Positions 9,259-38,701 of a DNA stretch of 64,000 nt are shown piece after piece (position 1 is the first letter of the stretch; every line of letters starts with the position of its first letter). The notes beneath the pieces are model-generated. The model ran no database searches. It worked only from the letters and a program-made list of their open reading frames with translations, and was not told the origin of the DNA. The translations under genes were made by a program, and so were the position numbers. Source of the DNA: Arenicellales bacterium (GTDB lineage Bacteria > Pseudomonadota > Gammaproteobacteria > Arenicellales > JAJDZL01); assembly GCA_965116205.1 (NCBI GenBank), contig OZ220493.1:2485072-2549071 (forward strand), written 5' to 3'.

Positions 9259-9363
9259 GGTGATTATAGGTTTTATTCACCGCAATTTGAAAAAATCTCG
9301 CTTATACATTTCAGCTATAATAATAAATTCAATGACGACCTCAATTTATCTGAACAATTACAA

Positions 9364-9751
9364 ATGAAATCAGACCTTTCACCGACTGATCTATCCTCCG
9401 CTCTCAGGGATTTGTCGGAAATAGAGCAAGCCGCCATTGAAGAAAATGACAAAATACCATCTAAAATTGCAAGACGAAACGCTTTACGATTACTGCGAGT
9501 GATGTACGATTACTCGCCGCAGTGTTATCAGGTGTATCCGTTGCATGATGGTGAGGTCACCATTGATGCACCTGGAGGTGTACGACAGGTCCGTTGCTGT
9601 GGTGTGTGAATCGAATGGTAGCGTTTTGTGCATGGCAAATTTTTTCGGACGTAGGCGTTATGCTCGATATTCCGATGCCAGCTCTCTACCGGACAAGTTT
9701 ATGTACGAAGCATTGAGTGAACTACGATGGAGGGAGTCTGGTTCGATTTGA
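9364..9751 (+). pseudogene. Hypothetical protein, apparently frameshifted (ORFs 9148-9609 and 9545-9751)
   Basis: Two overlapping ORFs in frames offset by +1 read on from each other (...LHDGEVTIDAPGG / YDRSVAVVCESNGSVLCMANFF...). I recognise no family. Confidence 0.3.
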
Positions 9752-9920
9752 ACCTAACAGAAACCATAAAGCCAAACGAATGCCTTGGCGAGGAGTTTTT
9801 TTCAAATAGAGATACGCAAAAAGGGTGGCAGACTAGTCGAGGCTTGATACGAAACTCCAAATTAGTAAAGTCCAAATCAAACGCACATGAGTGAAATCAA
9901 TCCAGTTGAATTTCTATTCT

Positions 9921-10544
9921 TTAGACTTTTCTATGTAACCACCAATTGGAATTTTCTTCTGCACCCGCACCTTTCCAAATAAACCCGTAATCTACCAGTT
10001 CTAAATCAGAAAAATACTCGTGCCAGAACATCCCAAAGTCACGTTTAAACAACTTATTTTTGTGGCCTCAGTAATCAATCGATTCGGGCCTGTCTGAGAA
10101 ATATTCGTTTGTTACGATGTATTTTGATGTGACACGATGCAATTCACGATACGTTTCAAGTAGATTACTTGGCTCAATATGGATCAACACGCCGCACGAT
10201 ATAGCTAGTTCAACAGATTGGTCTGCAAGTGGAATTTGGTTTCCCACTCCTTCAAATATATTTTTCTCTGGTAATATCCCACTTTTTCTGAGTGTATTTC
10301 TCGCTAAAGTGTTGGGTTCAACTGCGTAAAAAATAGCATCAAGTAGATGGCTGAGAGCATGTAGATTTATTCCCACGTTGGGCCCTATTTCTACACATGA
10401 CGTAGGGAGACAATGTTCCACAGCTCGTAGGATTCGAGACCATTTCCAAGTACTACCCAGGATTCGTGCTCTGGTTAGGTTGCAACGTTGACTATACTCG
10501 TTCCCAAATTCACCACGCCAAAAATCTTCTTGTTCGGTTTTCAT
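9921..10544 (-). pseudogene. Pseudaminic-acid-biosynthesis-associated methylase-like protein with an in-frame TGA
   Basis: The N-terminus TEQEDFWRGEFGNEY and SAM-MTase core resemble the Pse-locus methylase family (from memory). ORF 10068-10544 ends at TGA 10068-10070. The same frame then stays open for 48 more codons (GHKNKLFKRDF...DYGFIWKG...) to TAA 9921-9923, giving about 207 aa. Confidence 0.55.
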
Positions 10545-10752
10545 CTGAATACTATTGTTTTACTTGTCCATATTACATTGAAAAATAACGCATTTTTTAC
10601 TAACTAACCTATTGTGTTTTTTTCTTCATGATCTTAGTATGCATGTGTGGTATGAATGGAATGCTACTGTGGTCAGAGTAAAAATTTTACAGAATTATTG
10701 GTCCAGACCCAAGAAGAGTTCCACACGAGGGATAGTGATATTATAAAATAAA

Positions 10753-10876
10753 GGCTCTATTCTAAAATCGTGCGCGTGTGCATAAAATCAGATACTTAGA
10801 AATCAATAAATATCACTTTATTTCAAAGCTATACAGCTGTTGATGTTCTTTGCGCATACAATTTTAGAATAGAGCC
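10753..10876. repeat. 124-bp element bounded by perfect 16-bp inverted repeats (MITE-like or invertible/regulatory segment)
   Basis: GGCTCTATTCTAAAAT (10753-10768) and its exact reverse complement ATTTTAGAATAGAGCC (10861-10876). AAATAAA occurs just outside both ends (10746-10752 and 10878-10884). Confidence 0.6.
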
Positions 10877-11156
10877 CAAATAAAATCATCCTTGTAAGTG
10901 TAAAGGCGCCATTTCAGGAAAAAATACTGTAGAAAACCCACGCCGGAGAGAATATGGGCTTGAACTCATTTGTAAACTCAAAATCGGCGAAATGCGATAC
11001 ACTCGAAATGACAATATGAAGAATCTGTACTCTATATCAGTGGTCTTATTAACCACTAGCAAGAATCGCGAAGTACTCCTCATTGAAGTCTAAACTGAAG
11101 ATGTGTGAGGCAAAGAGAAACCGGCTCATTTCCAGACGTTAAGAAAAATTCAGAAG

Positions 11157-12483
11157 ATGAAAGTTACACATCTACAAAGTTCTACTCAAATCATCAACTT
11201 AGGCGACCTAAAAGTGCTGACTGATCCATGGTTGACTGATGGTGAGTACTACGGCAGTTGGTATCATTATCCGCCTTTTGGGGAAGAAAATATAGACAAT
11301 TTAAATTATGACTTTATTTACGTTTCCCACATTCATCCAGATCATTTGAGTGAGAAAACGTTTCGAAAACTTCCACTCAAGAAGCCCGTACTGATTCACA
11401 ATTATGACTCTAAGTTTGTAAAGCACAAACTGGAAATATTGGGTTACGAAGTTATTGAGTGTGATCATGGTAAGACTTTTGAATTCGAAAACGGTGGTTC
11501 AATAACTATCTATGCAGCTGACAATTGCAATCCAGAGCTTTGTGGGAAATTCTTGGGCTGCGCGAATCTAGAAGCTAAATTTGGAAGCACGCAGATTGAT
11601 ACGCTAGCTGTGTTTAAGCATCAAGGCGAAACCATCGTTAACGTTAACGATTGCCCTTTTGAGTTGGCGGAGAAAACTATTATAGCTAATATGCCTGAAA
11701 TTTTCTGGGGGGGGGGTGAACTTACTTCTAGTTGGCTATGCCGGTGCCGGACCGTACCCCCAGTGTTTTCACTTTGATAATATAGGTGATAAGCAGAAAG
11801 CAGCCGAGCAGAAAGAAAAACAATTTTTGCAGCAGGCAGCAAACTATATCAATCTGCTAAAACCGGATGCCTATGCTCCTTTTGCTGGCACCTATGTTCT
11901 GGGTTCTAAATTAGTAGGGTTGACCAAATTCAGAGGGGTGCCATTAATTTCAGATGCGCTGAACATGCTGAAAAATTATATATTGAATGATAGTAGCGGA
12001 GTTCTTCTCAACAAGCTGGATGTGTACGATGTGACCACTCAGCGACTATTCAAACATGAAGATGTGCCGAATCGCACCTATGACGAATTCTTACATGAGA
12101 TTGCAAACAAAAAACTTGAATATGAAGATGATGACTGGAATGATGCGGGTCTTTCGACACTCATGAATAAGTCTTACGAGCGATTCACCACTAAGGCCAG
12201 GGAGATTGGCTTTAAATCAACTACTTCATTGGTTGTGCAGAGTGATCGGGTTGCTTATCGGCTAAGTACGAGTGTCCCACCTGTTGAAGTTCCCGTCAAT
12301 AGTCGCTGTTCTGAGCCACTTCTGCGCATAACTGTTGATCATAATTTGCTTCATCGTTTACTCAGAGGGCCTAGATTTGCCCATTGGAATAATGCAGAAA
12401 TCGGTAGCCACCTACAGTACTTTCGCCAGCCAAATACCTATGAAAGAGGTCTGCATCATTGCATCTGTTTTTTGCATCAGTAA
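11157..12483 (+). pseudogene. MBL-fold metallo-hydrolase split by a poly-G frameshift (phase-variation candidate)
   Basis: ORF 11157-11777 carries HxHxDH (VSHIHPDH). ORF 11716-12483 continues in the +1-offset frame right after the G10 tract. Removing one G gives a single 441-aa ORF. Confidence 0.7.
11707..11716 (+). repeat. Homopolymeric G10 tract inside a coding sequence
   Basis: Counted directly: ttttct GGGGGGGGGG tgaac. Confidence 0.95.
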
Positions 12484-12686
12484 ATAAATTTACATGCAAA
12501 TGGTAGGAATATTAAAAGCAGCTTTGCATGACCGGCAGGGTAATAATTCGTTACTTTGAGACCGGCGAGCATCATATCTCTAGTAACTTCTAGTAAGACA
12601 AAACGATTTTTGATTGGATACGCGTTTTGGTTTATCTTTCGATTGTTTTTCTTGTATAAGAATTGAAGAAAGTTCGACGCAGGCGA

Positions 12687-13490
12687 TCATTTGATTTCTT
12701 TTTTCATCCGCTGTCTAAATGCCAATCTTTTCGGTATGCCTTGAGTAAGGAGTAGGTGAATCCTATATCTCAGTGTCTTTCTGTTCTTGTGTGGTAAAGT
12801 TTTTGCACTTAACCTTGGTCCGTAACTTTCCTCATTATAAGAGTGGTGTATTTCACTTGGTTCACCGTGATAAACCACTTGAGGTGAAATCGTGTAAGTT
12901 CTTAACCCATTTTTCCACCATGCATGTAAGTGCAAAACAAAATCAACCAAATCAACCATTATGGGATATTCTTTCAATAAAATTTTGATGGCTTGAAGAG
13001 TGATTACGTAGCCTACTGCTCCCATTGAATTACACTTGACTATACCAAGTGTGAACTTATCATTGATCTTATAAACAGGGAGGAAAGGATTTCTTGTTTT
13101 TCCGTTGTATAAGAAAACAATATCGAATTGATGCCCTTCGTTTTGAAATATACTTTCAATTGCAACTAATGCTGACTTCGTCTCTTTGGCAAGCTGGCAG
13201 TCATCTTCAAATACGGCAATCAGCTCTTCTTCATTTGCTAATGCGGTCCGCCAAACCTTCCGGTGACTTAACCAACAAGCTAAACCGCCATGTACAGGTG
13301 GTCGCTTGAATTTTCTTTCATTCGCAAGATACTGCGAGTCAACGTTGTCTTCAATGTCTTGGTCAGTCAAGTCGCGCCAATCTACACCTGATACGAACTC
13401 AAACTCAATCTCGGTGTTCTGAAACTCATTAATGCACGTTTCCTTTCGATCTGTCGCCCGTTCTAAGTGAATCACATAGCATTTCATCAA
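12687..13490 (-). CDS. Glycosyltransferase family 25 (LOS/LPS-type), copy A
   Basis: MKCYVIHLERATDR N-terminus and VFEDDC motif. It has a basic C-terminal tail (GIPKRLAFRQRMKKE) shared with ORF 35760-36608. Confidence 0.8.
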   Translation of the reverse strand: MMKCYVIHLERATDRKETCINEFQNTEIEFEFVSGVDWRDLTDQDIEDNVDSQYLANERKFKRPPVHGGLACWLSHRKVWRTALANEEELIAVFEDDCQLAKETKSALVAIESIFQNEGHQFDIVFLYNGKTRNPFLPVYKINDKFTLGIVKCNSMGAVGYVITLQAIKILLKEYPIMVDLVDFVLHLHAWWKNGLRTYTISPQVVYHGEPSEIHHSYNEESYGPRLSAKTLPHKNRKTLRYRIHLLLTQGIPKRLAFRQRMKKEIK

Positions 13491-13732
13491 ATTTGTTCCG
13501 GAAGTTGAACCACTCGCTTGATCACTTTAATAATGATTTTCCACTTTTCTGATGGTATTGAGCATTTTTCGCTGATTAGTCGAGGTGTTTTTAGCAGTTG
13601 AAAAATAGTAATACAGAAAATTACGCTATCGTTGTTGGCGGGCGTGAAACACTGAGCTAATTCAGGATAAGTCTCATTGAACGAGTATTCCAGTTTGACA
13701 ACTGGCTCGCAGAAATCACTCTGCCCGGTCAA
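13487..13732 (-). CDS. Hypothetical small protein (81 aa), doubtful
   Basis: The ORF bridges the gap between the ATPase and GT25 genes, overlapping both ends (stop overlaps the GT25 ATG). I recognise no motifs and the paralogous region has no counterpart. Confidence 0.2.
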   Translation of the reverse strand: MTGQSDFCEPVVKLEYSFNETYPELAQCFTPANNDSVIFCITIFQLLKTPRLISEKCSIPSEKWKIIIKVIKRVVQLPEQI

Positions 13733-15038
13733 TGAGATACTGTCGAAACGACGGAATTGGGATGATCAGATTTGTGTCCACACGATGCACCATCCCAGCA
13801 AAAACCATCTCCTCGATGAAATCTATTGGCTTCATGTTTTCAAGCATTACACTCTCTGAATCAGGGGCAGTTTCCCATGCTCTACCTCTGAGAAAAGATA
13901 CAAGTTTTAATCTAGAACAACCCTCGGGCCCGATCAACCGTGCGACATCTGCGAGTAATTGTTTGCAGTCGCTGATGGGTGAGTGATCCAATCGGTCTCT
14001 GTAATACTGCAGGCGACACCTATCGCCAAACGAACGTACTGTGGCCTCATCCACGCTTGCTAGATCAAGGTGGTTGATTTTGAGCTGATTGGCTAACCCC
14101 ACCATGTAGTGAAACAGATGTTGCGGCCAACCATTGGACCATTCGTTTATCTTGTCAGGTAAGTCGGAATTGTCTCTGTCTTTGATTTGGTAGCCATCTA
14201 ACATGGCACGCACCGATTCAGCCGCCTCACCAGTTTCCAATACCCCTAACGTCTGTACATGACTTTGTCCATTACTAGTAGCAAAGCGCGAGATTCTCTC
14301 CGCCGCTAATTTTGATTTGGAGTAGGCGAGTCCATAAAGAACCGCCAAAATCGGTAAACCATGCGTACCGTTGTGCAATTTGAATAGCAACGCCACATCC
14401 TCTGGCTTGAAAATCTGCACCTCATCAATCATCACCACAATAGGCCGTAGTTTTGGTGGTTTAATTGAACTTCCTTTTATGACCCTCTTGAAGATAGCTG
14501 CAGTTTTTTTACTGTAGAGCTTTGCTAGATCTTGCAAAACTAATTGAGATGACTGCTCACTATCGGTCACTTTTCCTCCACCCTTGATAAACATGTTAAA
14601 ACCGAGGTCTCTTTCAACAGTGCGAACAGAGTCAAGTATTTCCGCACCATAGTCTGGTACGATGCAGTTAGCAATTGTGCGCGTGACTTCAGACTCATTG
14701 CGCAGTTCAACCGGCTCAATTCTCACCACCACGGGTCCGTTAGACTTTGCCATCCATCTGTTCTGCAAATGACTAAGTAATGCCGATTTGCCGGCGCCGG
14801 GTGCCCCTTGAATTAGCCAAGTCTCTTGGTTAGATAACACCATTCCAGGCTGCAAACCTGCGTTAGGGGTTTCATACTTGATTCTGTTTTCGATTTCGGC
14901 AACTGTGGATTCGATGCCAGTGATGATATCTTTGCGTCCAACGAAGAATATGGCCTTATTCTTGTCGCTCCTTTGTCCGAATTTTTCCAAGGAAATTGGG
15001 GGTTCGATATACATTTGCGATGTCTCAGTTTTCAGCAT
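13716..15038 (-). CDS. STAND/AAA_16-like NTPase with C-terminal winged-helix-like region, copy A
   Basis: FFVGRKD...(FVGRxxE-type lead-in), Walker A QGAPGAGKSALL, Walker B VVMIDEVQ, and a SNGWPQHL helical-arm-like motif. It is paralogous to ORF 43766-45058. Confidence 0.65.
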   Translation of the reverse strand: MLKTETSQMYIEPPISLEKFGQRSDKNKAIFFVGRKDIITGIESTVAEIENRIKYETPNAGLQPGMVLSNQETWLIQGAPGAGKSALLSHLQNRWMAKSNGPVVVRIEPVELRNESEVTRTIANCIVPDYGAEILDSVRTVERDLGFNMFIKGGGKVTDSEQSSQLVLQDLAKLYSKKTAAIFKRVIKGSSIKPPKLRPIVVMIDEVQIFKPEDVALLFKLHNGTHGLPILAVLYGLAYSKSKLAAERISRFATSNGQSHVQTLGVLETGEAAESVRAMLDGYQIKDRDNSDLPDKINEWSNGWPQHLFHYMVGLANQLKINHLDLASVDEATVRSFGDRCRLQYYRDRLDHSPISDCKQLLADVARLIGPEGCSRLKLVSFLRGRAWETAPDSESVMLENMKPIDFIEEMVFAGMVHRVDTNLIIPIPSFRQYLIDRAE

Positions 15039-15323
15039 GCTCTACATCAATCATAACATGTTACATCAGACGGTGAATCATATTAAATTGGAACAGTTTG
15101 GGGTGTATTCAGGATGAATCTCAGCTAATGCATTATTATTAACATCTCTATGGTTATAATATTCACCTAACATCCAGCACCATAATGGATTGAAGCCACT
15201 GAGTTGAAAGTTAGTGCCCCTTTTTCAGCCGAATTATATGGTGGTACCACCGACCTTTGTTCCTGCGAATTTTTTAGGTGAGGTGTTTGCGCACACCTAA
15301 CCATAAGATATGATACACAGAGA

Positions 15324-16001
15324 ATGATAGTTACAATTCACCAGCCGGCATTTCTTCCTTGGCTAGGTTATTTTGACAAAATCCTTCACAGCGATACCTA
15401 TGTGTTCTTAGATTCAGTCCAATTTCGGAAGGGTGGCTATTCCAATCGAAATAGAATAAAGGGGGCTAACGGAGTGATATGGTTAACCATACCGGTCAAG
15501 CTAAAGGGTCACAAATCCAGCACCATCGGAGATATACCAATTGATTACTCACAGAAATGGAAAAGACAACATTTAAATTCTATCTTTTTCAACTATCGAA
15601 AGGCGAAGTTCTTCGATCTCCTGTTCCCAAAGTTAGAAACTCTCTATGCGGAAAAGCATGAGCTATTGTCAGAACTTGTCTATGCTCAATTGTTATTTTG
15701 GATGAGTGAGCTAGGCATTGAAACCGAAGTCGTTAAATCTAGTGATATTCCCACTCAGTGCAAGAAATCTGATTTGGTTTTGGAGTTGTGTATAAAACTT
15801 GGTGCACATCAATATCTTGCCAGTCCAAATAGTACAATTTACTTAGAGGAGACTGGTTTCCATGATCATTCGATTCGTATTGACTACCGAGGCTACGAAC
15901 ATCCAGTGTATCCACAACTTTTTGGTGAGTTTGTTCCAAATCTATCAATCGTTGATTATTGGATGAACGCGCACAAATCAATTTTCGTTCGAGAGGAATA
16001 A
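15324..16001 (+). CDS. WbqC-family protein, copy 1
   Basis: The N-terminus IHQPAFLPWLGYFDKI is typical of the WbqC-like family. 225 aa. Confidence 0.75.
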   Translation: MIVTIHQPAFLPWLGYFDKILHSDTYVFLDSVQFRKGGYSNRNRIKGANGVIWLTIPVKLKGHKSSTIGDIPIDYSQKWKRQHLNSIFFNYRKAKFFDLLFPKLETLYAEKHELLSELVYAQLLFWMSELGIETEVVKSSDIPTQCKKSDLVLELCIKLGAHQYLASPNSTIYLEETGFHDHSIRIDYRGYEHPVYPQLFGEFVPNLSIVDYWMNAHKSIFVREE

Positions 16002-16004
16002 TTG

Positions 16005-16676
16005 ATGCCCGAATTGAGCCAAAGTGACATCTGGAATAAAGTTTATAGCCACCACAAGCGACATGCAATTTGGCCTTGGACGGATCTCGTTAAACTCGTC
16101 ATGCGTCATGCATCTCCACCTTACCGGAAAGGTTTCAAAGTACTCGAATTAGGCTGTGGTGCCGGCGCTAATATTCCATTTTTTGCATCGCTGGGGGTGA
16201 GTTATTTTTCCGTAGAATCAAGTGAGGTCATTGTCTCCCAGTTGCATGAAACTTATCCACAATTCTGTGATTCTATAGTCGCCGGAGATTTCACAAGAGA
16301 GTTGCCTGATGAGGAGTTTGATTTGATTGTAGATCGAGCAGCGCTCATTCATAATAAATCTGCAACCATTGAACTGTGTATGCAGCATTGCCATGAGAAA
16401 CTGAAATCAGGTGGTAAATTTATCGGTGTTGATTGGTATTCAACCCGATGCAGTTCCTTTGCACACACTGAGGCGGAAGATGAATGGACGCGAGTCAATT
16501 TTGCAAGTGGTCCTTTTGTTCCCGTATACCGAGTTCATTTCACCAACAAGACACGTTTACTGGAGATATTATCAAATTTTGAATTAGAGGTATTGGAACA
16601 TAAAACGATTGAATCGGAGTCGGACAAAGAAAACGCGACCCTTGCAAGTTGGAACTTCGTAGCAACAAAATCATGA
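16005..16676 (+). CDS. Class I SAM-dependent methyltransferase, copy 1
   Basis: VLELGCGAGAN motif I. It starts 3 nt after the wbqC-1 stop. Its 5' ~260 nt are about 94% identical to copy 2. Confidence 0.8.
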   Translation: MPELSQSDIWNKVYSHHKRHAIWPWTDLVKLVMRHASPPYRKGFKVLELGCGAGANIPFFASLGVSYFSVESSEVIVSQLHETYPQFCDSIVAGDFTRELPDEEFDLIVDRAALIHNKSATIELCMQHCHEKLKSGGKFIGVDWYSTRCSSFAHTEAEDEWTRVNFASGPFVPVYRVHFTNKTRLLEILSNFELEVLEHKTIESESDKENATLASWNFVATKS

Positions 16677-16784
16677 TGGGCAATGCGGTGAGATGGAAAT
16701 GTTGGCCAGAGGCGGTGGAGCGGAGCCTCCACTAAACCACTTCGATTCACTTATTTTTACGCAACATGAAAGCGTTACCATAAA

Positions 16785-17462
16785 ATGGTTGTCTCAGTCC
16801 ATCAGCCGGCATTTCTACCATGGCTAGGTTACTTCAACAAAATTATTCGTAGCGATAAATTTGTCTTTCTTGATACGGTTCAATTTGAGAAGGGGAGTTT
16901 TGTTAACCGAAATCGGATCAAAGGTAACAACGGAGTGATATGGTTGACGGTGCCTATTAAAATAAAAGGACACATGACCAATACCATCAAGAATATTTTG
17001 ATTGATAATACTCAGAAGTGGCAAAGAAGGCATCTGAATTCAATTTTTTTCAACTATCGAAAAGCGAAGTATTTTGATCGTTTGTATCCGCAGTTAGAAC
17101 AGCTGTATCAGGAACGGTATGATTTTCTGTCTGACCTCACCTATTCACAGTTGAAATTTTGGCTGGATGAACTGAACATCAATACCAAAGTCATTAAGTC
17201 GGAAGATTTGTCCACTCAACGTAGGAAATCTGATCTTATCTTGGAATTATGTCTACGGCTGGGTGCCGATCAATATCTAGCAGGTTCGCTCAGTAAGAAT
17301 TATCTTGATGAATCAGCGTTTCGTCAGCAGTCAATTGATATCGAATACCAAAACTACCAAGGTCCGAAATATCCACAACTTTTTAGTGGATTCATTCCTA
17401 ATCTATCCATTGTTGATTATTGGATGAACACTCACAATACCATTTTCATTCGCGAGGAATAG
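16785..17462 (+). CDS. WbqC-family protein, copy 2
   Basis: VHQPAFLPWLGYFNKI N-terminus. It has the same length as copy 1 (225 aa) and is about 70% identical. Confidence 0.75.
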   Translation: MVVSVHQPAFLPWLGYFNKIIRSDKFVFLDTVQFEKGSFVNRNRIKGNNGVIWLTVPIKIKGHMTNTIKNILIDNTQKWQRRHLNSIFFNYRKAKYFDRLYPQLEQLYQERYDFLSDLTYSQLKFWLDELNINTKVIKSEDLSTQRRKSDLILELCLRLGADQYLAGSLSKNYLDESAFRQQSIDIEYQNYQGPKYPQLFSGFIPNLSIVDYWMNTHNTIFIREE

Positions 17463-17464
17463 TT

Positions 17465-18145
17465 ATGCCCGAATTGAGCCAAAGTGACATCTGGAATAAA
17501 ATTTATACCCACCACAAGCGCCATGCAATTTGGCCTTGGACGGATCTCGTTCAACTAGTTATGCGTTATGCATCTCCACCCTACCAGAAGGGTTTCAAAG
17601 TACTTGAATTAGGCTGTGGTGCCGGCGCTAATATTCCCTTTTTTGCATCGCTAGAGGGGGGGGGGGTGAGTTATTTTTCCGTAGAATCAAGTGAGGTCAT
17701 TGTCTCCCAGTTGCATGAAACTTATCCGCAGTTTCGCGATTCAATAGAGGTTGGTGACTTCACAACAGAACTGCCTAATGAACAATTTGATCTGATTGTC
17801 GATCGAGGGGCAATGATTTGTAACAAATCCAAAGCTATTGCACGATGTATTCAGCGTTGTTATGCACAACTCAATTCTGGTGGAAAATTTATTGGTGTCG
17901 ACTGGTACTCTACCCAATGCAGTTCATTTGCGCAAGCTCAGGTGGAGGATGAATGGACCCGAGTGAATTTTGTAAATGGCCCCTTTGTACCTGTGCATAG
18001 AATACATTTTAGCGATAAAGAGCATCTGCTGGATTTGTTTTCCAATTTTGAAATCGAAGCACTTGAGCATAAAACCATTAACAATGAATATAACGAAAAT
18101 CACCCTACCTTGGCCAGCTGGAATTTTGTGGCGGTAAAAGTATGA
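17465..18145 (+). CDS. Class I SAM-dependent methyltransferase, copy 2 (contains an in-frame G11 tract)
   Basis: MPELSQSDIWNK start is homologous to copy 1, so the 17420 start in the ORF track is probably an upstream extension. VLELGCGAGAN motif. It has an extra EGG relative to copy 1, encoded by the poly-G tract. Confidence 0.8.
   Translation: MPELSQSDIWNKIYTHHKRHAIWPWTDLVQLVMRYASPPYQKGFKVLELGCGAGANIPFFASLEGGGVSYFSVESSEVIVSQLHETYPQFRDSIEVGDFTTELPNEQFDLIVDRGAMICNKSKAIARCIQRCYAQLNSGGKFIGVDWYSTQCSSFAQAQVEDEWTRVNFVNGPFVPVHRIHFSDKEHLLDLFSNFEIEALEHKTINNEYNENHPTLASWNFVAVKV
17656..17666 (+). repeat. Homopolymeric G11 tract inside a coding sequence (in frame)
   Basis: Counted directly: ctaga GGGGGGGGGGG tgag. 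The homologous site in copy 1 (16193-16197) is G5. Confidence 0.95.
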
Positions 18146-18820
18146 AAAATGTTCTTGTCGTTGCGGCGCATCCCGATGATGAAATTCTAGGTTGTGGTGG
18201 GGCCATGGCCCGCCATGTTGAGCACGGTGATGATGTTCATGTTCTATTTGTTGCGGATGGCGTGAGTTCAAGAGGCGGTGATTTCAGCATTGATGAACAT
18301 CGCCAAATGAGTATTCGCGCCAATGAAGAAGTTGGTACCCATTCACCGCGATTTTTGGATTTCCCAGATAATCAGCTGGATAGCGTTCCTTTGCTTCAAA
18401 TTGTTCAGGGGATAGAGCCCCATATTGAAGATATTTCTCCAAGAATCATCTATACACATTTCTCCGGTGATTTAAATATCGATCACTCCATTGTGAATCG
18501 CGCGGTGATGACAGCCTGCCGACCACAACCGAATTTTCCCGTTCAAGAAATTTACGCATTTGAAGTTCCGTCGAGCACGGGCTGGCTTCCAAATGGGGGG
18601 GGGGGTGAACTCCTTTGAGCCTAATGTCTTTGTTAACATTACAAAAACGTTTTCCAAAAAGTTGGCTGCACTTGAGTTTTATGGAAATGAAATGCGACCA
18701 TTTCCACACAGCAGGAGTTTTGAAGGAGTTGAACATTTAGCCTGTTTTCGCGGTACATCTGTAGGATTGGAGATGGCTGAAGGATTTGTTGCGGAACGCA
18801 TTCTTCAGGTTGACCGTTGA
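18142..18820 (+). pseudogene. PIG-L/LmbE-family deacetylase split by a poly-G frameshift (phase-variation candidate)
   Basis: VVAAHPDDEILGCGG N-terminal motif in ORF 18142-18618. ORF 18560-18820 (FEPNVFVNIT...PHSRS...) continues in the +1-offset frame after the G11 tract. Removing one G gives a 225-aa ORF. Confidence 0.75.
18595..18605 (+). repeat. Homopolymeric G11 tract inside a coding sequence
   Basis: Counted directly: ccaaat GGGGGGGGGGG tgaac. Confidence 0.95.
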
Positions 18821-18835
18821 GAACTGAAAACCTGA

Positions 18836-19438
18836 ATGGAACAACTCAGCAAATGTCATGGAGATGGTCAAAAGATACTGTTTCTAGGCTTTGATCGAAA
18901 TAAAACGAGTTTGATTGATTATTTAATTTCAAAAGGACATGAAGTTTGGCATACCGAAAAAACCATCTCTGCCGTGACTGATTTCCAATTTGTCATCAGT
19001 TTTGGCTATATGCACATGATCACACGTGAAGTGCTTCGAGATCACAAGTGCCTGTTCATCAACTTACATATTTCCTATCTGCCGTTTAACCGAGGATCTA
19101 ATCCAAATTTTTGGGCTTTCTACGATCAAACGCCCAGTGGGGTAACTATTCATAAGATTGATGCTGGAACTGACACCGGTGACATTATTTGTCAAAAGCA
19201 GGTAAAGTTTGATCAAGGGGAAACAACTTTTGTTCAGACCTACAACAGACTGATTATTGAGACCGAAGAATTATTCAAAAATTGGTGGAACTTGATTGCT
19301 ACCCATCAATTTACCGCGACTCCTCAAGATGTAAAAGCGGGTACCTATCATAGAGATTCAGATCTGCCGAAAGAGATATCCACCTGGGACGTAGAGATTA
19401 CCTCAGAAATTAATCGCCTCAGAGAGTTGTTGAGTTAA
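18836..19438 (+). CDS. Sugar N-formyltransferase-like protein (formyl-transferase N-terminal domain only)
   Basis: NLHISYLPFNRGSNPNFWA matches the HxSxLPxxRG formyltransferase motif. 200 aa. Confidence 0.7.
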   Translation: MEQLSKCHGDGQKILFLGFDRNKTSLIDYLISKGHEVWHTEKTISAVTDFQFVISFGYMHMITREVLRDHKCLFINLHISYLPFNRGSNPNFWAFYDQTPSGVTIHKIDAGTDTGDIICQKQVKFDQGETTFVQTYNRLIIETEELFKNWWNLIATHQFTATPQDVKAGTYHRDSDLPKEISTWDVEITSEINRLRELLS

Positions 19439-19522
19439 GAATGAAATGCTAACGCCATACTTGAAATTGAAAATTCGGAAGATTTATCCCAACCTATTCT
19501 CACCTGACATCTACAAATCTCT

Positions 19523-20515
19523 ATGTTACAGAAATCGTCAATCCTGTTAACCGGTGGCACCGGTTCTTTTGGTTCTCGTTTTGTTCCATTAGCACTGGAA
19601 AAATACGATCCTTCCCGTCTGGTCATTTATTCTCGCGATGAAATGAAACAATGGGAGATGTCGAAGGCATTCCAGAATGATCCGCGGGTTAGATTTTTTC
19701 TGGGCGATGTGCGTGATAAAGAACGCCTCTACAGAGCGATGGATGGAGTTGACTATGTAGTTCATGCTGCTGCACTCAAAATCATACCCATCGCTGAGTA
19801 CAATCCGTTTGAATGCATCAAGACCAATATCAATGGCGCGATGAATGTCATTGATGCCTGTCTGGACGTTGGAGTCAAAAGATGCATCGCTCTTTCTACT
19901 GACAAGGCGTCCAGTCCGGTGAATCTCTATGGGGCGACCAAGTTGGCGGCGGAAAAATTGTTTGTCGCCGCCAATGCTTACTCTGGAAACTCCCGTTGTC
20001 GCTTTGCTGTGGTTCGGTACGGAAACGTGATGGGATCGAGGGGGTCGGTGATTCCTTATTTTCTATCATTGGATAAGCAAGGCGAATTACCGATTACGGA
20101 TGTTCGTATGACTCGCTTTATGATCAAACTCGAGCAGGCAGTAGACTTGGTTTTTCATGCTTTTTCTGAGATGGTAGGGGGCGAGATTTACATTCGTAAG
20201 GTGCCATCCATGAATATTATGGACATCGCTAAAGCCTGCGTTCCAAATTCGAAACACAAAATTATTGGTATTCGCCCCGGTGAAAAGTTAAGCGAACAGC
20301 TCGTCGGTGAAGATGAATCAGCCTTTACCTATGAATACGATGAGTATTTCAAGATCATGCCGGCAATCCAAACCTTCTCAGAGCAACCCAAACCCGATGG
20401 TCAATTGGTTGCCAGCGGGTTCAAATACGCGTCAGATTCAAACGATTCATGGATGGAAATTCAAGAACTATCGGAATGGATCGACAACAACCGCGACATC
20501 ATTGGTTACTTCTAA
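19523..20515 (+). CDS. pseB: UDP-N-acetylglucosamine 4,6-dehydratase (inverting), PseB/FlaA1-type
   Basis: LLTGGTGSFG Rossmann motif and YGATKLAAEK (YxxxK). 330 aa, immediately followed by a PseC-type aminotransferase. Confidence 0.85.
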   Translation: MLQKSSILLTGGTGSFGSRFVPLALEKYDPSRLVIYSRDEMKQWEMSKAFQNDPRVRFFLGDVRDKERLYRAMDGVDYVVHAAALKIIPIAEYNPFECIKTNINGAMNVIDACLDVGVKRCIALSTDKASSPVNLYGATKLAAEKLFVAANAYSGNSRCRFAVVRYGNVMGSRGSVIPYFLSLDKQGELPITDVRMTRFMIKLEQAVDLVFHAFSEMVGGEIYIRKVPSMNIMDIAKACVPNSKHKIIGIRPGEKLSEQLVGEDESAFTYEYDEYFKIMPAIQTFSEQPKPDGQLVASGFKYASDSNDSWMEIQELSEWIDNNRDIIGYF

Positions 20516-21670
20516 TTGATTCAATATGCCCGCCAAAACATCACGAAAGGTGATGTTGAAGCAGTCGTTGCGGCACTGAGTTCGAATTTTTTGACACAGG
20601 GTCCGCTGGTGCCTGAATTTGAACAGGCGGTCGCACAACAGGTAGCGGCGAAATATGCCGTTGCAACTAACTCGGCAACCTCTGCGCTACACACAGCCTG
20701 TTTAGCTCTAGGACTGTGTTCTGATGATTTACTTTGGACCGTTCCCAATTCGTTTGTGGCATCGGCAAATTGTGGATTACTTTGTGGGGCTGAAGTAGAT
20801 TTTGTTGATATTGATTCAACAAGTTACTGTATGGACGTAGATGCATTAGCCAGCAAATTAAAAACAGCTGAACTGGCCGGACGACTACCCAAGGTCTTAG
20901 TCGTTGTACATTACGCCGGGCATAGTGCAGAGATGCTGTCGATTAGAAAACTCGCCAATCAATATGGAATCCATGTCATTGAAGATGCTGCCCACGCTAT
21001 AGGTGGTAGTTATCGGGGAAAGTTGATTGGCTCCTGCGAATTTAGCGATGTTACTGTTTTCAGTTTTCATCCGGTCAAAATCATGACGACAGCCGAAGGC
21101 GGAATGGCTGTTACCAACGATGCGCAAATTGCTTCACGTATGGCGAGACTCCGAACTCATGGAGTGACCCGAAATCAGGCTGAAATGCAGAACAAAAATC
21201 CTCATCCATGGGAATTTGAGCAACTCGAACTTGGCTTGAATTATCGAATGACTGAGTTGCAGGCGGCGTTGGGAATATCGCAATTGGGGCGGCTTGATGC
21301 TTTTGTATCTCGTCGTCGTCAACTGGCTCATCAATATGACGCACAACTTCGTAAATTACCTTTAATTCTACCTAATCTACAATCATCGAATGAGTGTGCT
21401 TGGCATCTGTATCCAGTGTTGATCGACTCAAGGCAGACGACATTGACACGGGAACAGGTCTATTATTCACTGCTGGACAGAGGAATCAAATCAAACGTAC
21501 ATTTCATTCCCATCCATACGCAACCATACTTTAAGGAAATGGGCTTCGCAGTCGGCGACTTTCCAGTGTCCGAGTGGTTTTATGCCCATGAACTCAGTTT
21601 ACCGATGTATTATGATTTGACTGATTCAGAGCAACAGAGCGTGATAGATGCGATGTTTGCAGTGTTTTGA
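20516..21670 (+). CDS. pseC: UDP-4-amino-4,6-dideoxy-N-acetyl-beta-L-altrosamine transaminase-like (DegT/PseC family); TTG start
   Basis: The N-terminus IQYARQNITKGDVEAVVAALSSNFLTQGPLVPEFE is PseC-like. SFHPVKIMTTAEGG carries the PLP-lysine context. Confidence 0.8.
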   Translation: MIQYARQNITKGDVEAVVAALSSNFLTQGPLVPEFEQAVAQQVAAKYAVATNSATSALHTACLALGLCSDDLLWTVPNSFVASANCGLLCGAEVDFVDIDSTSYCMDVDALASKLKTAELAGRLPKVLVVVHYAGHSAEMLSIRKLANQYGIHVIEDAAHAIGGSYRGKLIGSCEFSDVTVFSFHPVKIMTTAEGGMAVTNDAQIASRMARLRTHGVTRNQAEMQNKNPHPWEFEQLELGLNYRMTELQAALGISQLGRLDAFVSRRRQLAHQYDAQLRKLPLILPNLQSSNECAWHLYPVLIDSRQTTLTREQVYYSLLDRGIKSNVHFIPIHTQPYFKEMGFAVGDFPVSEWFYAHELSLPMYYDLTDSEQQSVIDAMFAVF

Positions 21671-21740
21671 ATCTCTTGGTTTATTTCCATCCGTTCAGGA
21701 AATGGATTTCGCAATGATAACTGACCCAATGTCGATGAAA

Positions 21741-23237
21741 CTATGATGAGAAGGTCGTACTGATTCTGTTTTGAATCAAATCAACAATGGTATTGGCGAC
21801 TCGTTTGGCATTTTTTTCTAGATCGTGTTTGCCACCGGACCTCCGTCTTTTCAGTGGTTGAATACGGCCGCCATGGGCACGGGCAAAAAGTTGACGGACT
21901 GCTTGTTGCAGATGCTCTGGATCAATCTTGAAATCACAGATACGGTCATAAGTGAGGTCATCTTGATACTTGAATATTCCCGGTAAATTCAGATACCAAG
22001 GCGATCCAAAAATCAGTGCTTTTTTGCCATTGCAGATGGCTTCCCAAGCTGCAGTTCCGGTAATCGCCGCAACAAACTGAGCGTGTTCAATCAATTGGTG
22101 GGTATTGGCATAAGAGGGTACCCAACGAATGTTGCTCAGGTGACTGAGTCGATGAAAAAATTGCGCACCACGCATACACCCACCTTGCTTTGGATTTTCC
22201 TTGAGATAAATCAGACAGTCATCAGGCAGCAATTGACACAGTTGCTCCAATGCCAGAATCTGGTCGGCATAAATGCCTCCAAGTGTGGAGGTTGTCATTT
22301 CAGGTTGGAGCTGTAGCGGAAAATAGACGAATTTACAGTGGAAATCAATCTCAGTCGTTTCGAATTGTAGCAGTGTTTCAAAGTAATCCAGATGACGGAT
22401 ATCAAAATACCTGGAGAATGGATACCGCCATTTAGGCAACAAAGATGCAATACGACTCATTCGCCGCAGAAAATTGGCCAAGTGAAAAGGTTGTAATAGG
22501 GTTGCTGGCCGTACCGTAAGTAAATGTACCAATAGCATCAGTATCCCCAGTCCATTGAGTTTTCCCAATTTGCCTTGCTGCTGCTCCGTACCTTTCATGT
22601 AATCCCATTCTAGTGTTTCGGTCAATTCGGCGAACCGATGATCATCTTGCAGAGTGGGAGTTGGTGACCATTTTCCATAATCATTGATATCACGAAGGGA
22701 AAAAAAGTACTCGGGGTATATCGTTGGTGAGAGCATTAAGGTATTGATTTGTCGAGACTTCGCGATCTGGTAGGCCAAGGTGTCTACGAACAAGTGCGGA
22801 AGCTCGAAAAACAGTATCAAATCAATTCTTTGCTGTGTCAAATAATGAGCAATAAGATCGGTGATGATGCGATAGTAGTGCTTCTCATCCATAATGGAAT
22901 TCAGTTCATGATGCCGCCAGACAAAACTAGCAGATTTCCGTTCTAAGTGGTCTAGAGCCATGAGTGTCGCTGCATTTGATTGTGCGCTCAACAGCAGTTC
23001 TAATCCATGACCAGAAAACTGATCATTTTGCAAGATTTCTGCGATAGCTCCTGATCTTTTTTCCATTCTTACCAAGTTGGTTAAACCGATATCCTGTTGG
23101 TTGCCGACCACGATCAATCTTGATGTAGAGGGTAACAGACAGTTCAGCTGACGGACTATGGCTTGCATGAGAATGTCAGCCGCGCCAAAGACTAAGATAG
23201 TTTGTGGAGTCAAGTTGAGTTGGGTAGTTTGCGTCAT
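21741..23237 (-). CDS. Capsule-polysaccharide-biosynthesis-family protein (KpsS/KpsC/LpsZ-like), paralogue 1
   Basis: 498 aa. YFPLQLQPEMTTS motif and C-terminal ...VAAITGTAAWEAICNGKKALIFG. Family assignment is from memory and unverified. Confidence 0.55.
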   Translation of the reverse strand: MTQTTQLNLTPQTILVFGAADILMQAIVRQLNCLLPSTSRLIVVGNQQDIGLTNLVRMEKRSGAIAEILQNDQFSGHGLELLLSAQSNAATLMALDHLERKSASFVWRHHELNSIMDEKHYYRIITDLIAHYLTQQRIDLILFFELPHLFVDTLAYQIAKSRQINTLMLSPTIYPEYFFSLRDINDYGKWSPTPTLQDDHRFAELTETLEWDYMKGTEQQQGKLGKLNGLGILMLLVHLLTVRPATLLQPFHLANFLRRMSRIASLLPKWRYPFSRYFDIRHLDYFETLLQFETTEIDFHCKFVYFPLQLQPEMTTSTLGGIYADQILALEQLCQLLPDDCLIYLKENPKQGGCMRGAQFFHRLSHLSNIRWVPSYANTHQLIEHAQFVAAITGTAAWEAICNGKKALIFGSPWYLNLPGIFKYQDDLTYDRICDFKIDPEHLQQAVRQLFARAHGGRIQPLKRRRSGGKHDLEKNAKRVANTIVDLIQNRISTTFSS

Positions 23238-23281
23238 CTACTTGGAGATGAGGAATGCCTGGTTACGAGAATTTTGCCCAT

Positions 23282-24766
23282 TTAGAGACTCGTCTGCGAG
23301 GAGGCCATTCGCTCTGATGAGCGAAAGCTGGTATCCGCGCGGTTGAAAATGAGCTTGATTATTTGGTTGGCAACGATTTCTGCGTTTTTTTCAATGCCAA
23401 TGGCATGAGTCTGCGCTGATGATTGCATGTCATCTGGGTGAAGATTACCATCATGTGATTTCGAGAATAGAATATTAATTTGATCATTAACTTCTAGATT
23501 AGTGAAATGAGATTCAACAACTTCTTCATAAGAAAGTTCATTTTTAAAGATGTGGACTCCAGGAAATTTCCAGTACCAAGGTTTGCCAAAAACGAGTACT
23601 TTTTTATCCAAATTGAGCGCATTCCACCCCAGTTGACTGTTCACAGTGGCAAATATTTCACAATTCTCCAGGAGTTGTTGAGTGTTCATGCAACGAGGTA
23701 TATGGACTACGTTTGAGATTCGTCTGAGCCGATGGAAAAACATCGGAGTCAGGTAGTCTGAGTGTTCGACATCGCTATCCTTAACCATGATCTTGTAATG
23801 GCTTGGAATGAATCTCGACAGTTGTTCAATGGCGAGTAATTGGTCCGAAAATTGATTGAGCAATATTTCCGAGTAGAGTTCTCTTAACGGCTGTAAAGGA
23901 AAATAAACGTACTTGTGCTGTAGCTGAGATGTGATATCACAATCTTGAGTGATAAATTCAAAATAAGCATGTTTTTTTTGAAAGAAGAACTTGGCAAATG
24001 GATCACGCCAGTCGTTTCTGTTGGGTGGTGCGTCATGTAAGTGTCTTGCCCGGCTCAGGACAAAGACCGGGTCAAACAACTTGATTGATCGAATCTCCAA
24101 GAGAAACAACACGACTTTGATGGCATTTGCGAGCGTTAATCGGCTGGTTGATTTCTGCTGAGTCATATCCGCCGGTATGGTGTTGCCTTTCAAATGAGAA
24201 ATTTCTTGTTTTGTTACCTCGACAAAGGTTTCATAGTCACCGAAGTCATGCAATGACCGCAATGAAAAAAAACGTTTTGGAAAAATAGCGGGAGTCAGTA
24301 TCAGGGTTTCTATTCGTAGTGCTTTCGCCACTTGGTATAACAGAAGGTCGACTAATGCAGTGGGCCAATTGAAGAATACGATCAAGTCAATTTTCTGTTC
24401 CACCAAGTGATTCTGCAGTAGATTCCATAGCATCTGATTAGCATGTAGATTGTCGTGGAACAGGAGAATATTCCCATCTTTGCCGCGCTCATATTCTTGA
24501 ACCAAGGCGTTTGCCAATTGACTGCCCGGGTCGGTGTTGAAAGTGAGCGGGTAATTGCAGTGGGAAGGTTCCACAACACTTGAATAATGAGAATAGTTGT
24601 GATGCGGATAAGTGGAATCATAGATTTTTTCAATCGCCAAGTCACTTTGATCAAATACCAGCACTTGGGCAGAATGATGCAGTGATTCCTTTTTCAACTG
24701 CCGCAATATTTCCGCATTGTCGTCAGATTTCCCGACGATGAGAATGCGCGGAGCTGTTTTTTTCAT
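23282..24766 (-). CDS. Capsule-polysaccharide-biosynthesis-family protein, paralogue 2 (most divergent); start probably at 24766
   Basis: YFPLQPLRELYSE motif. Alignment with paralogues 1 and 3 starts at MKKTAPRILIVGK. The ORF track extends it to 24874. Confidence 0.55.
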   Translation of the reverse strand: MKKTAPRILIVGKSDDNAEILRQLKKESLHHSAQVLVFDQSDLAIEKIYDSTYPHHNYSHYSSVVEPSHCNYPLTFNTDPGSQLANALVQEYERGKDGNILLFHDNLHANQMLWNLLQNHLVEQKIDLIVFFNWPTALVDLLLYQVAKALRIETLILTPAIFPKRFFSLRSLHDFGDYETFVEVTKQEISHLKGNTIPADMTQQKSTSRLTLANAIKVVLFLLEIRSIKLFDPVFVLSRARHLHDAPPNRNDWRDPFAKFFFQKKHAYFEFITQDCDITSQLQHKYVYFPLQPLRELYSEILLNQFSDQLLAIEQLSRFIPSHYKIMVKDSDVEHSDYLTPMFFHRLRRISNVVHIPRCMNTQQLLENCEIFATVNSQLGWNALNLDKKVLVFGKPWYWKFPGVHIFKNELSYEEVVESHFTNLEVNDQINILFSKSHDGNLHPDDMQSSAQTHAIGIEKNAEIVANQIIKLIFNRADTSFRSSERMASSQTSL

Positions 24767-24874
24767 ATTGAGAAAATACCAATCTTTTCCAAGAGTTGAA
24801 TCAGCAGATAAAACAACGAGTGACTTGACTAATCGAGCTATCCAATTGGCAAGGTTAACGAGAAAATAGCTCAA

Positions 24875-26386
24875 TTACCCTTCATTGTTCAAAAATGTCG
24901 GCTCAACTTTATGTTCAATCAGGTCCAGTATGGTTCGCGCGACGGTTTTTGCATTGGCGACTAGTGCAATTGCATGGTCTTGATCTTTCTGTTTTGCAAT
25001 ATACAACGCGCCTTCGTGAGTGCGAGACAACAATAGTCCAGCCTTTTGTTCTAACTCGGCATGGTTGATCTCAGAAGAAATAATTTCGTCATAAGTCATG
25101 CCATAACGAAATGGAATGGCACCGTCTAAATCTCGATACCAAGGATTGCCAAAGAAAAGAACCGCCTTGCCTTTGCAAATCGCTTCCCAACCGACTGTTC
25201 CGGTAACGGTGGCTACAAATTGTGAGTGGTCGAGCAATTCCTGCGTGTTGGCATAGGAAGGGACCAATCGCACCTGACGAATGCGAAACAGTCGGTTGAA
25301 GAACTGTGCACCCCGCATCGCGCCGGTTTGTTTGGGATTTTCCTTTACGAAAATTAAGCAGTCAGCGGGAATTATCTCCGCGAGTTTCTCAATGGCCAGC
25401 AACTGATCATAATAGTCTCCACCGATTGTCGATGTAGATAATTCCGGTTGTAGATGTAAAGGAAAATAAACGAACTTACAGTGCCAATCAATTTCAGACT
25501 TTTCAAAATCCAGTAGTGTTTCGAAATATGCGAGATGACGGATATGGAAAAATTTCGCAAATGGGTAACGCCACTTGGGAAGGGTGCTTGCTATGTGCCG
25601 CATTCGATTGATGCAATTAACCAAATATCGAGGATTAAATAGTTTGACCGGCGTAGAAGTTAACAGGTGACAGAACAGCGCGATGATGCCGCGTCCATCC
25701 AAAGAACCCAGTTGGCCCTGATACTGCTTAACACTAGACATATATCCCCACTCAATGGTTAGATTTTTGTCAATGGTGAGTGGCGCCACTGGTGGCTGAT
25801 CCGAATGTTCTCGTAGGCGGCCAAATTGGTCAAGGTCTCGAAGTGAAAAAAAGCGATTGATAAAAGGTGAAAAAGTGAGGATGATGGTTTGAATGCGCTT
25901 GGCTTTGGCAATGTGATAGGCGATGGTATCGTAGTAAAGGTGAGGAATATCGAAGAACAATACGACATTGATATGGTTACGTACCATATGGTCAGCCATG
26001 ATATCCACTACCAAATGGTAGTATTGCACCGCATCGTAGAACGTGTTGAGGTTGTTGTGTGACCACGCAAAGTTTTCCGTTCTTCGCTGTAGATGATCCA
26101 GACCCATCAGCACGGCTTCACTCAGCGCTTTGCTGTTCACCCAGTGTAACTCTCCCCCGGAGTACATTGAATCTTTTATGTTCAGACTTTTTTTTGTTTT
26201 TCGACGTTTAATCCGAGTTAACCCACTCATCACAATGTCAGCACCTCGTTTTCCAGCAACGTCAAATTGCGCTGATTTGGGCAGTTGATTTCTTAACTGC
26301 GAAACGATGGTTTGTAGCGTTTCATTGCTAGTACTGAATGCCAGAATGCACAATGCTCCGTCAGTCAACTCTGTTGTCGATTGCAT
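24875..26386 (-). CDS. Capsule-polysaccharide-biosynthesis-family protein, paralogue 3
   Basis: 503 aa with YFPLHLQPELSTS motif. It is collinear with paralogue 1 along its whole length. Confidence 0.55.
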   Translation of the reverse strand: MQSTTELTDGALCILAFSTSNETLQTIVSQLRNQLPKSAQFDVAGKRGADIVMSGLTRIKRRKTKKSLNIKDSMYSGGELHWVNSKALSEAVLMGLDHLQRRTENFAWSHNNLNTFYDAVQYYHLVVDIMADHMVRNHINVVLFFDIPHLYYDTIAYHIAKAKRIQTIILTFSPFINRFFSLRDLDQFGRLREHSDQPPVAPLTIDKNLTIEWGYMSSVKQYQGQLGSLDGRGIIALFCHLLTSTPVKLFNPRYLVNCINRMRHIASTLPKWRYPFAKFFHIRHLAYFETLLDFEKSEIDWHCKFVYFPLHLQPELSTSTIGGDYYDQLLAIEKLAEIIPADCLIFVKENPKQTGAMRGAQFFNRLFRIRQVRLVPSYANTQELLDHSQFVATVTGTVGWEAICKGKAVLFFGNPWYRDLDGAIPFRYGMTYDEIISSEINHAELEQKAGLLLSRTHEGALYIAKQKDQDHAIALVANAKTVARTILDLIEHKVEPTFLNNEG

Positions 26387-36608: not shown

Positions 36609-36963
36609 TTTTCAGTCCTGTCTAGGTTAACCAACACTAGATATTCAGCAGGTAAATAAAACTCACTTATTCTGTTCCGAGAGATTTACAGTCAAAGCAT
36701 TACACCCAATCGAATAGAGTAGTTTTGACAGAAGTTTATTGAACGCTTCGAAAGAGTCAAGATTTTTCTAGGGGGTTGTTATTTCGACCAGTTCTAATGT
36801 TAAATATTAACTCGACATTTTAATCTGAACCATCTCTAGATTTTCCTGCATCTTTTCCTGCCGTTCGGATTCAGTTCAGTGTGGCATCTGTGAATACCTT
36901 AGCCGTCCTTAGTTATGGGAGTTCTGATTTATGTTAAAATTGAAATCGTTCAGTTGCTAATCC

Positions 36964-38547: not shown

Positions 38548-38701
38548 ATCTTTCAAATGGTGTGGTCAAGAAAGGATTCAAGGAGTATCTCATTTTCCCA
38601 CTACAGAAGTATTTTTAATACCTGTCTACTAGACTTCTGCATTTACCTGTTGCAGAATACTCTTCAGCAAACAAATGTTGGACAGTATTTTTTGGAGCTG
38701 A

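Follow-up and report, generated by a model that had tools for sequence, protein, structure and literature searches.

Slipped-strand mispairing in coding runs of G or C switches enzymes of lipooligosaccharide (LOS) and capsule synthesis in Neisseria and Haemophilus (lgtA, lgtC, lgtD, and siaD), and combinations of switched genes generate repertoires of glycoforms. Contingency loci of this kind change state reversibly, at rates of ~10^-5 to 10^-2 per generation. To our knowledge, repeat-driven phase variation has been described almost entirely from host-adapted pathogens. Background on homopolymeric-tract phase variation in Neisseria and Haemophilus is given in PMC5084427 and PMC5320596. In Campylobacter, tracts of 7 to 13 G's occur in methyltransferases, in formyltransferase-domain proteins, and in genes that modify the pseudaminic acid (Pse) glycan of flagellin, which PMC6321876 assigns to the core phasome; further precedent for poly-G phase-variable loci appears in PMC8355987 and PMC8437040. 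Here, we describe a candidate locus of this type in a 64,000-nucleotide stretch of an Arenicellales genome (contig OZ220493.1, assembly GCA_965116205.1), referred to below as the window. Ten G's fill positions 11707 to 11716, within a gene for a predicted metallo-beta-lactamase (MBL)-fold enzyme, and two G11 tracts lie close by. We consider it probable that these three tracts are homopolymeric contingency loci, through which the modification of a surface glycan undergoes slipped-strand phase variation.

The sequence around the tract reads ttc tgg ggg ggg ggt gaa. A first-pass annotation of the window held that this run splits a single MBL-fold hydrolase gene, that the upstream part (11157-11777, which contains VSHIHPDH) terminates 61 nt beyond the tract, that the downstream part (11716-12483) is open in an offset frame beginning inside the tract, and that one G fewer, or two more, would restore one open reading frame (ORF). 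Every coordinate and number in that description was reproduced. The final 20 residues of the upstream ORF are out-of-frame read-through, and the downstream ORF opens with a GTG that takes its first G from the 3' end of the tract. Rebuilding the gene with tract lengths of 6 to 14 yielded proteins of 440, 441, and 442 amino acids (aa) with G6, G9, and G12, of 205 to 207 aa with G7, G10, and G13, and of 186 to 188 aa, ended by an immediate TGA, with G8, G11, and G14. As is typical of a contingency locus, a change of a single unit toggles the product between full-length and truncated forms. Across the junction, the G9 product reads ...EIFWGGVNLLLVGYAGAGPY..., and the junction peptide of the full-length product is EIFWGGVNLLLVGYAGAGPYPQCFHFDNIGDK. 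In a public protein collection, each half has its own entry, P0121 (206 aa) and P0079 (255 aa), both from one 3.33-Mb contig, and these entries should be merged into one protein.

Comparison with homologues bears out the proposal that the tract splits one gene. The G9 translation retrieved 1293 relatives, and the best 120 are almost all 438 to 441 aa long with 100% query coverage, so that more than 100 homologues span the whole of the rebuilt protein; the nearest is 74% identical. An alignment of 17 sequences (16 of them homologues) is collinear over the junction and contains ~130 invariant columns, which are distributed across the two halves. Homologues continue past the tract, and no independent protein family corresponds to the downstream ORF. 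Residues invariant in the family are kept downstream of the tract, for example, V192, Y194, GAGP at 196-199, and HW-NAEIGSHL at 409-419. The ratio of C-part to N-part identity is 0.75 between the window protein and its homologues and 0.77 +/- 0.07 among the intact homologues themselves. There is no sign of decay downstream of the tract. No second lesion was found in the 441 codons. Judged from its sequence, the gene is otherwise intact and appears to be maintained by selection.

The tract itself is an addition to the family. Precisely at the tract, the window protein is two residues longer than all of its homologues (PEIFWGGVNLLLVGY versus LDR--LRVNLLLVGY), and the DNA of the nearest homologue reads TCGGTTAAGGGTAAAC (AGGGTA) there. 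In an AlphaFold model, the tract residues follow a helix (179-182) and precede a strand (189-192). Because the two-codon insertion has no counterpart in homologues, it is best described as an expansion specific to this lineage, in a loop of low conservation. A scan of genome contigs, which returned MBL-fold orthologues at no more than 59% identity, revealed a G/C tract inside the orthologue at none of 62 orthologous loci of other genomes (1.04 Mb). As a separate observation, genes neighboring the MBL-fold orthologue in other taxa contain long in-frame or 5'-proximal G/C tracts (L033:13396-13405, L039:3015-3024, L023:11499-11507, and L001:10052-10059). One is a G10 within a 491-codon ORF of a Nitrosopumilus metagenome-assembled genome (MAG), which by eye resembles a membrane O-acyltransferase of the MBOAT/AlgI type; in Halobacillus, the ORF adjoining the MBL-fold gene begins with a G9.

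Runs of this length are otherwise missing from the window. G runs of 3, 4, 5, and 6 number 378, 79, 20, and 1, there are none of 7 to 9, and the series then ends in one G10 and two G11s; C runs longer than 5 are absent from the 64 kb. The naive expectation for runs of at least 10 is 0.046 per window, and no G10 arose in 100 dinucleotide-preserving shuffles. GGG is the rarest glycine codon (12%), and GGT is the commonest. The G10 tract is far beyond chance. The only G/C runs of at least 7 in the window are this tract and the two G11s, 6 to 7 kb away from it, and all three are coding, on the same strand, within 7 kb, and in genes that modify a Pse glycan. By the cutoff of at least 7 G/C for a hypermutable repeat, taken from PMC6321876, the G10 within its reading frame qualifies. 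The first-pass annotation overlooked that the G10 is one of three tracts in one glycan island, and this alters its likeliest meaning.

A TGA lies directly 3' of all three tracts (11717-11719, 17667-17669, and 18606-18608). The resulting string, GGGGTGA, reads in frame as a series of glycines and then valine, and one OFF phase therefore stops at once. We considered whether a TGA after every tract might be a signal in its own right and rejected this: the ancestral GGGGGTGAG is seen in the methyltransferase paralogue, GGGTAAAC occupies the site in the nearest MBL-fold homologue, and the PIG-L tract of a related genome is followed by CAC. The pattern is probably no signal because it appears to derive from the flanking valine codon and lacks conservation.

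The two G11 tracts lie in a methyltransferase gene dependent on S-adenosylmethionine (SAM) and in a gene for a PIG-L/LmbE-family deacetylase (Table 1). At the tract site, the tandem paralogue of the methyltransferase reads CTGGGGGTG, and the copy with the tract has three more residues (9 nt); this insertion is absent from 13 further aligned homologues. With G10, the PIG-L gene encodes a 225-aa protein; residues 2-217 of this fused form align with TT1542 (1uan, 227 aa), and residues 3-223 align with the BshB1 profile. As assembled, the methyltransferase is ON, and the MBL-fold gene and PIG-L are OFF. All three tracts are, as the alignments indicate, coding, recent, lineage-specific loop insertions in predicted glycan-modifying enzymes.

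Table 1. Tracts, the genes that carry them, and the surrounding glycan island, in window coordinates
Feature	Positions	Strand	Remarks
Pse glycan island, holds all three tracts	10068..26386	.	Profile matches, GC
N-terminal ORF of split MBL-fold gene	11157..11777	+	206 aa; as assembled with G10
G10 homopolymeric tract, proposed slippage switch	11707..11716	+	Codons 184-187 of 441
C-terminal ORF of MBL-fold gene	11716..12483	+	255 aa from GTG start
Tandem methyltransferase paralogue	16002..16676	+	76% identical; G5 at 16193-16197, state without expanded tract
SAM-dependent methyltransferase with G11	17465..18145	+	226 aa, ON as assembled
G11 tract in methyltransferase	17656..17666	+	Read E-G-G-G-V; in frame at G8, G11, G14
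PIG-L/LmbE-family deacetylase, split by G11	18142..18820	+	18142-18618 plus frame 18605-18820
G11 tract in PIG-L gene	18595..18605	+	Out of frame as assembled
PseB	19523-20515		501.8 bits versus NCBIfam equivalog cutoff of 407.75
PseC	20516-21670		512.6 bits versus NCBIfam equivalog cutoff of 423.5

Related genomes place the PIG-L tract in an evolutionary setting. The nearest homologue of the SerS protein in the window is 83% identical, and Acidiferrobacterales stand at 71%. One relative, contig ctg6982_87x_l (a 3.8-Mb European Nucleotide Archive [ENA] contig, ERZ25068685), has a SerS that is ~79% identical and carries sHdr, DsrE, and TusA genes. The host of the window is an uncultured gammaproteobacterium and probably a sulfur oxidizer. 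The PIG-L orthologue of this relative has a G11 at the same codon (L067:11116-11126) that is likewise out of frame, with G10 again being the length needed. Upstream of the tract, the ratio of nonsynonymous to synonymous divergence (dN/dS, Nei-Gojobori) between the two PIG-L genes is 0.04; downstream, by the same method, it is 0.10 in the G10 frame (proportion of synonymous differences [pS], 0.65), and the two remaining frames give 1.0 and 2.5. Since the value of 0.10 is confined to the G10 frame, PIG-L has kept its function while the two genes diverged to a dS above 1.5. Despite being broken in both assemblies, PIG-L is not a pseudogene, and translation of its downstream part in the G10 frame has been frequent enough for strong purifying selection to act.

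Among 80 metagenomic PIG-L orthologues, at no more than 56% identity, none has a tract at the homologous site. The other Pse locus of the relative has a C9 in a WbqC gene (L066:9648-9656) that adds two prolines, which neither of the two WbqC paralogues in the window possesses. These comparisons indicate that long G/C tracts in Pse-island genes recur in this clade and not in the gene families as such. We also noted a G9 (L066:19673-19681) in a fragmented IS1595-family transposase region that borders the Pse island of the relative.

What the MBL-fold protein does can be predicted in outline. Its HxHxDH metal motif is SHIHPDH, at residues 57-63, and the Pfam profile Lactamase_B_3 (PF13483) matches residues 2-99 with 25.1 bits against a cutoff of 24, a narrow pass. 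The AlphaFold model (mean pLDDT, 82.7; pTM, 0.86) is a single fold with the alpha-beta/beta-alpha sandwich that, together with the metal motif and the profile match, characterizes MBL-fold proteins. A Foldseek search of the model against the Protein Data Bank (PDB) returned 163 matches at an E value of 0.001 or below, and almost all of the 50 listed are MBL-fold proteins. The best is the di-iron beta-hydroxylase CmlA (4jo0; E = 1.2e-09), with generic MBL-fold hydrolases at similar E values and the di-iron monooxygenase FrsH (8a90) at rank 14. FrsH is also the best sequence-profile match, a weak one (E = 0.0045), and identity to solved proteins is 14 to 16%. The fold named in the first-pass annotation holds, but "hydrolase" is a label of the fold only, given that the best structural matches include the di-iron hydroxylases CmlA and FrsH. 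Structural alignments to solved MBL-fold proteins extend over ~300 to 340 columns, compared with the 183 residues that precede the tract; the 206-aa N-terminal fragment would comprise part of the fold only and should be inactive.

The only name from any source is "UDP-MurNAc hydroxylase," an automated label that the JGI gives to many homologues. The neighbors of the nearest homologue include NeuB, a CMP-sugar synthetase, and other nonulosonic acid genes. CMAH and NamH, which hydroxylate the N-acetyl group of nucleotide-activated sugars, carry an N-terminal Rieske [2Fe-2S] domain fused to an MBL-like domain. The window protein shares the HxHxDH motif and the MBL fold with CmlA and FrsH and with CMAH and NamH but, unlike the latter two, has no match to a Rieske domain in Pfam or NCBIfam. 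CMAH is a precedent for an MBL-fold protein that acts on a nonulosonic acid (PMC4819959). On this evidence, the window protein is probably a nonheme di-iron oxygenase acting on a surface sugar of the nonulosonic acid or Pse type; it is predicted to work like CMAH or NamH, a likeness that does not extend to supported membership in their family. The family of ~439-aa MBL-fold proteins to which it belongs is widespread in marine bacteria, is found beside nonulosonic acid genes, and is uncharacterized; its members may be sugar N-acyl or carbon hydroxylases. Among these loci, the same NeuB gene appears as two ORFs (216 and 81 aa) on a JGI contig (L063:7948-8840) and undivided, with 297 aa, on a Logan contig (L064:2766-3659) that bears an identical MBL-fold protein; here, two assemblies of near-identical DNA differ by a frameshift.

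All three tracts fall within one Pse island, which provides the several loci and the surface-structure targets that are characteristic of contingency loci. In addition to the MBL-fold gene and PIG-L, the island contains a Pse-associated methylase, a GT25 glycosyltransferase, two WbqC-methyltransferase pairs, a formyltransferase-like gene, PseB, PseC, and three Capsule_synth-like genes. Its GC content is 42.4%, compared with 45.2% upstream and 48.0% downstream. The island adjoins ftsK-lolA-rarA-serS, and the remaining window consists of intact housekeeping genes. A scan for promoters and terminators around the MBL-fold gene gave fewer matches than in shuffles.

Several features of the island and its surroundings merit description on their own. 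The Pse-associated methylase (TIGR03587; 10068-10544, minus strand) matches only positions 1-153 of the 204 in its profile and looks truncated at the C terminus, and the adjacent 9260-10070 holds only short ORFs without a family match. At 21741-26386 (minus strand), the Capsule_synth-like genes are three tandem paralogous ORFs of ~500 aa with weak matches of the KpsS/KpsC-like type. The trio is conserved in the relative (L066:13208-17718), and we presume that it may encode Pse transferases, as it recalls the KpsS-like Pse transferases of Acinetobacter capsule loci. Outside the island, ~5 kb (35760-40555) separates the genes for pyruvate dehydrogenase E2 (34013-35698) and E1 (40750-43416), which are usually adjacent. 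This insert contains a second GT25 glycosyltransferase, an AAA_15/AAA_21 ATPase, and a protein of the AAA-ATPase_like/PDDEXK_9 type that is paralogous to 5174-6736, and it may be a small defense or glycan islet.

In the explanation that we favor, the G10 would be a hypermutable repeat within a functional gene for a 441-aa MBL-fold enzyme. Slipped-strand mispairing at replication would add or remove one G, and lineages would alternate between the full-length enzyme with G9 or G12 (ON) and a truncated half-fold with G10 or G11 (OFF), in which case the assembled G10 sequence would represent the OFF state. Combined, the three tracts could give a population as many as eight forms of one surface glycan, which would presumably serve as a hedge against phages or other glycan-recognizing agents. 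We infer a high frequency of tract-length variation, as well as the selective agent (phages or others) and the activity of the enzyme. Several points weigh against slipped-strand phase variation. A metagenome scan for the tract flanks with G6 to G16 between them gave no match, and no length polymorphism was observed. A second copy of the MBL-fold gene of this strain is absent from the protein collection; the proteins that cluster with the N-terminal ORF (P0122 to P0125) are fragments, and P0122 (locus L065) lies on an error-ridden, Pilon-polished long-read contig. The Pse island of a third relative lacks any long tract. The PIG-L tract of the first relative has the same length as that in the window (G11), which neither shows variation nor excludes it. 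A high rate of slippage would hinge on mismatch repair and polymerase properties of the host. Finally, the names of the relatives' contigs (ctg6982_87x_l and ctg513261l) suggest PacBio HiFi metagenome assemblies, which are weakest at long homopolymers, and the OFF state could be a one-base miscall.

That last point is the starting point of the main rival, a consensus miscall, in which the tract is real, its true majority length is G9, the gene is intact, and the split stems from long-read calling or polishing. We regard this as unlikely. In HiFi metagenome assemblies, the dominant type of error is the indel in a long homopolymer, the same -1 correction repairs both out-of-frame tracts (the G10 in the MBL-fold gene and the G11 in PIG-L), and the relative's PIG-L shows G11 where G10 is needed, just as a systematic +1 overcall would give. 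However, a uniform error cannot put all three tracts in frame, as the lengths of 10, 11, and 11 stand against in-frame classes of 9, 11, and 10; a uniform -1 correction throws the methyltransferase (G11) out of frame, and whichever uniform error is assumed, at least one gene remains OFF. Elsewhere in the 64 kb, abutting ORFs never meet at a homopolymer, despite 75 A/T runs of at least 6, and general sloppiness of assembly was rejected on these grounds. Moreover, a miscall would change only the state of the switch, to ON, and would leave the lineage-specific G9-11 loop insertion in place.

Two further explanations accept the assembled length and read it differently. A one-off frameshift in a G-rich stretch could have fixed a pseudogene, permanently inactivated and already decaying; the gene is broken as assembled, its public annotation consists of the fragments P0121 and P0079, and the truncation of the adjacent Pse-associated methylase (10068-10544) indicates some decay within the island. 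A pseudogene seems very unlikely to us all the same, given that the MBL-fold gene has a single lesion, keeps its invariant residues, and has a C/N identity ratio like that of intact homologues, that the lesion falls exactly in one of three extreme G tracts, itself an insertion, and that in the analogous case of PIG-L the downstream frame is under strong purifying selection. That same selection is what lends interest to programmed recoding, in which the out-of-frame length would be normal and a low output of full-length protein would come from RNA polymerase slippage or +1 ribosomal slippage. Runs of identical bases permit re-pairing of nascent RNA and of tRNA-Gly, and in two genomes with differences at the majority of synonymous sites, the PIG-L G11 is out of frame. 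Because these two genomes are near synonymous saturation with a downstream dN/dS of ~0.1, one could imagine that the out-of-frame lengths are the selected state and that recoding controls the dosage of surface-glycan decoration through constitutive, low, tunable levels of these enzymes, the MBL-fold protein among them, and not through an on/off switch, a scenario to which we, as for recoding in general, assign a very small probability. Recoding sites combine a conserved slippery sequence with a stimulatory element; the MBL-fold tract is unshared by any orthologue examined, and the PIG-L site is conserved in one relative, with no stimulator in evidence. RNA structure downstream of the tracts is not significant (z = -0.18, -0.87, and +0.26 in the window, the first of these for the MBL-fold tract, and -2.0 in the relative). 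A Shine-Dalgarno-like element is missing upstream, the codon that the required shift would bring into the A site is neither rare nor a stop, and the third tract, in the methyltransferase, is in frame, against a recoding rule.

If the three tracts are indeed contingency loci, the bet-hedging typical of pathogens would extend to bacteria that are environmental or symbiotic, and phages with the glycan as their receptor would be the most plausible threat. Our literature search found no paper that joins phase variation with sulfur-oxidizing or marine symbionts. In practical terms, long G/C tracts in long-read MAGs should be checked as possible switches before they are "corrected" or the genes called pseudogenes.

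The locus can be set beside two known groups of systems, of which that of Campylobacter is the closest precedent. As in the Campylobacter jejuni, C. coli, and C. fetus loci (the cj1295 group, maf genes, capsule, and LOS), intragenic G tracts would act as translational on/off switches, and they cluster in Pse-type and other surface-glycan loci with several independently switching genes per locus. Campylobacter is an AT-rich epsilonproteobacterial pathogen, whereas the host of the window is an uncultured gammaproteobacterium with 46% GC, and neither MBL-fold nor PIG-L proteins are among the phase-variable groups that a term search of PMC6321876 brought up. Switching has been demonstrated in Campylobacter; in the window, we infer it from sequence. 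In Neisseria and Haemophilus, the targets are glycosyltransferases of host-adapted pathogens, in contrast to the oxygenase-like protein, methyltransferase, and deacetylase of an environmental lineage described here. The mechanism is already known; the host lineage and the target genes are new.

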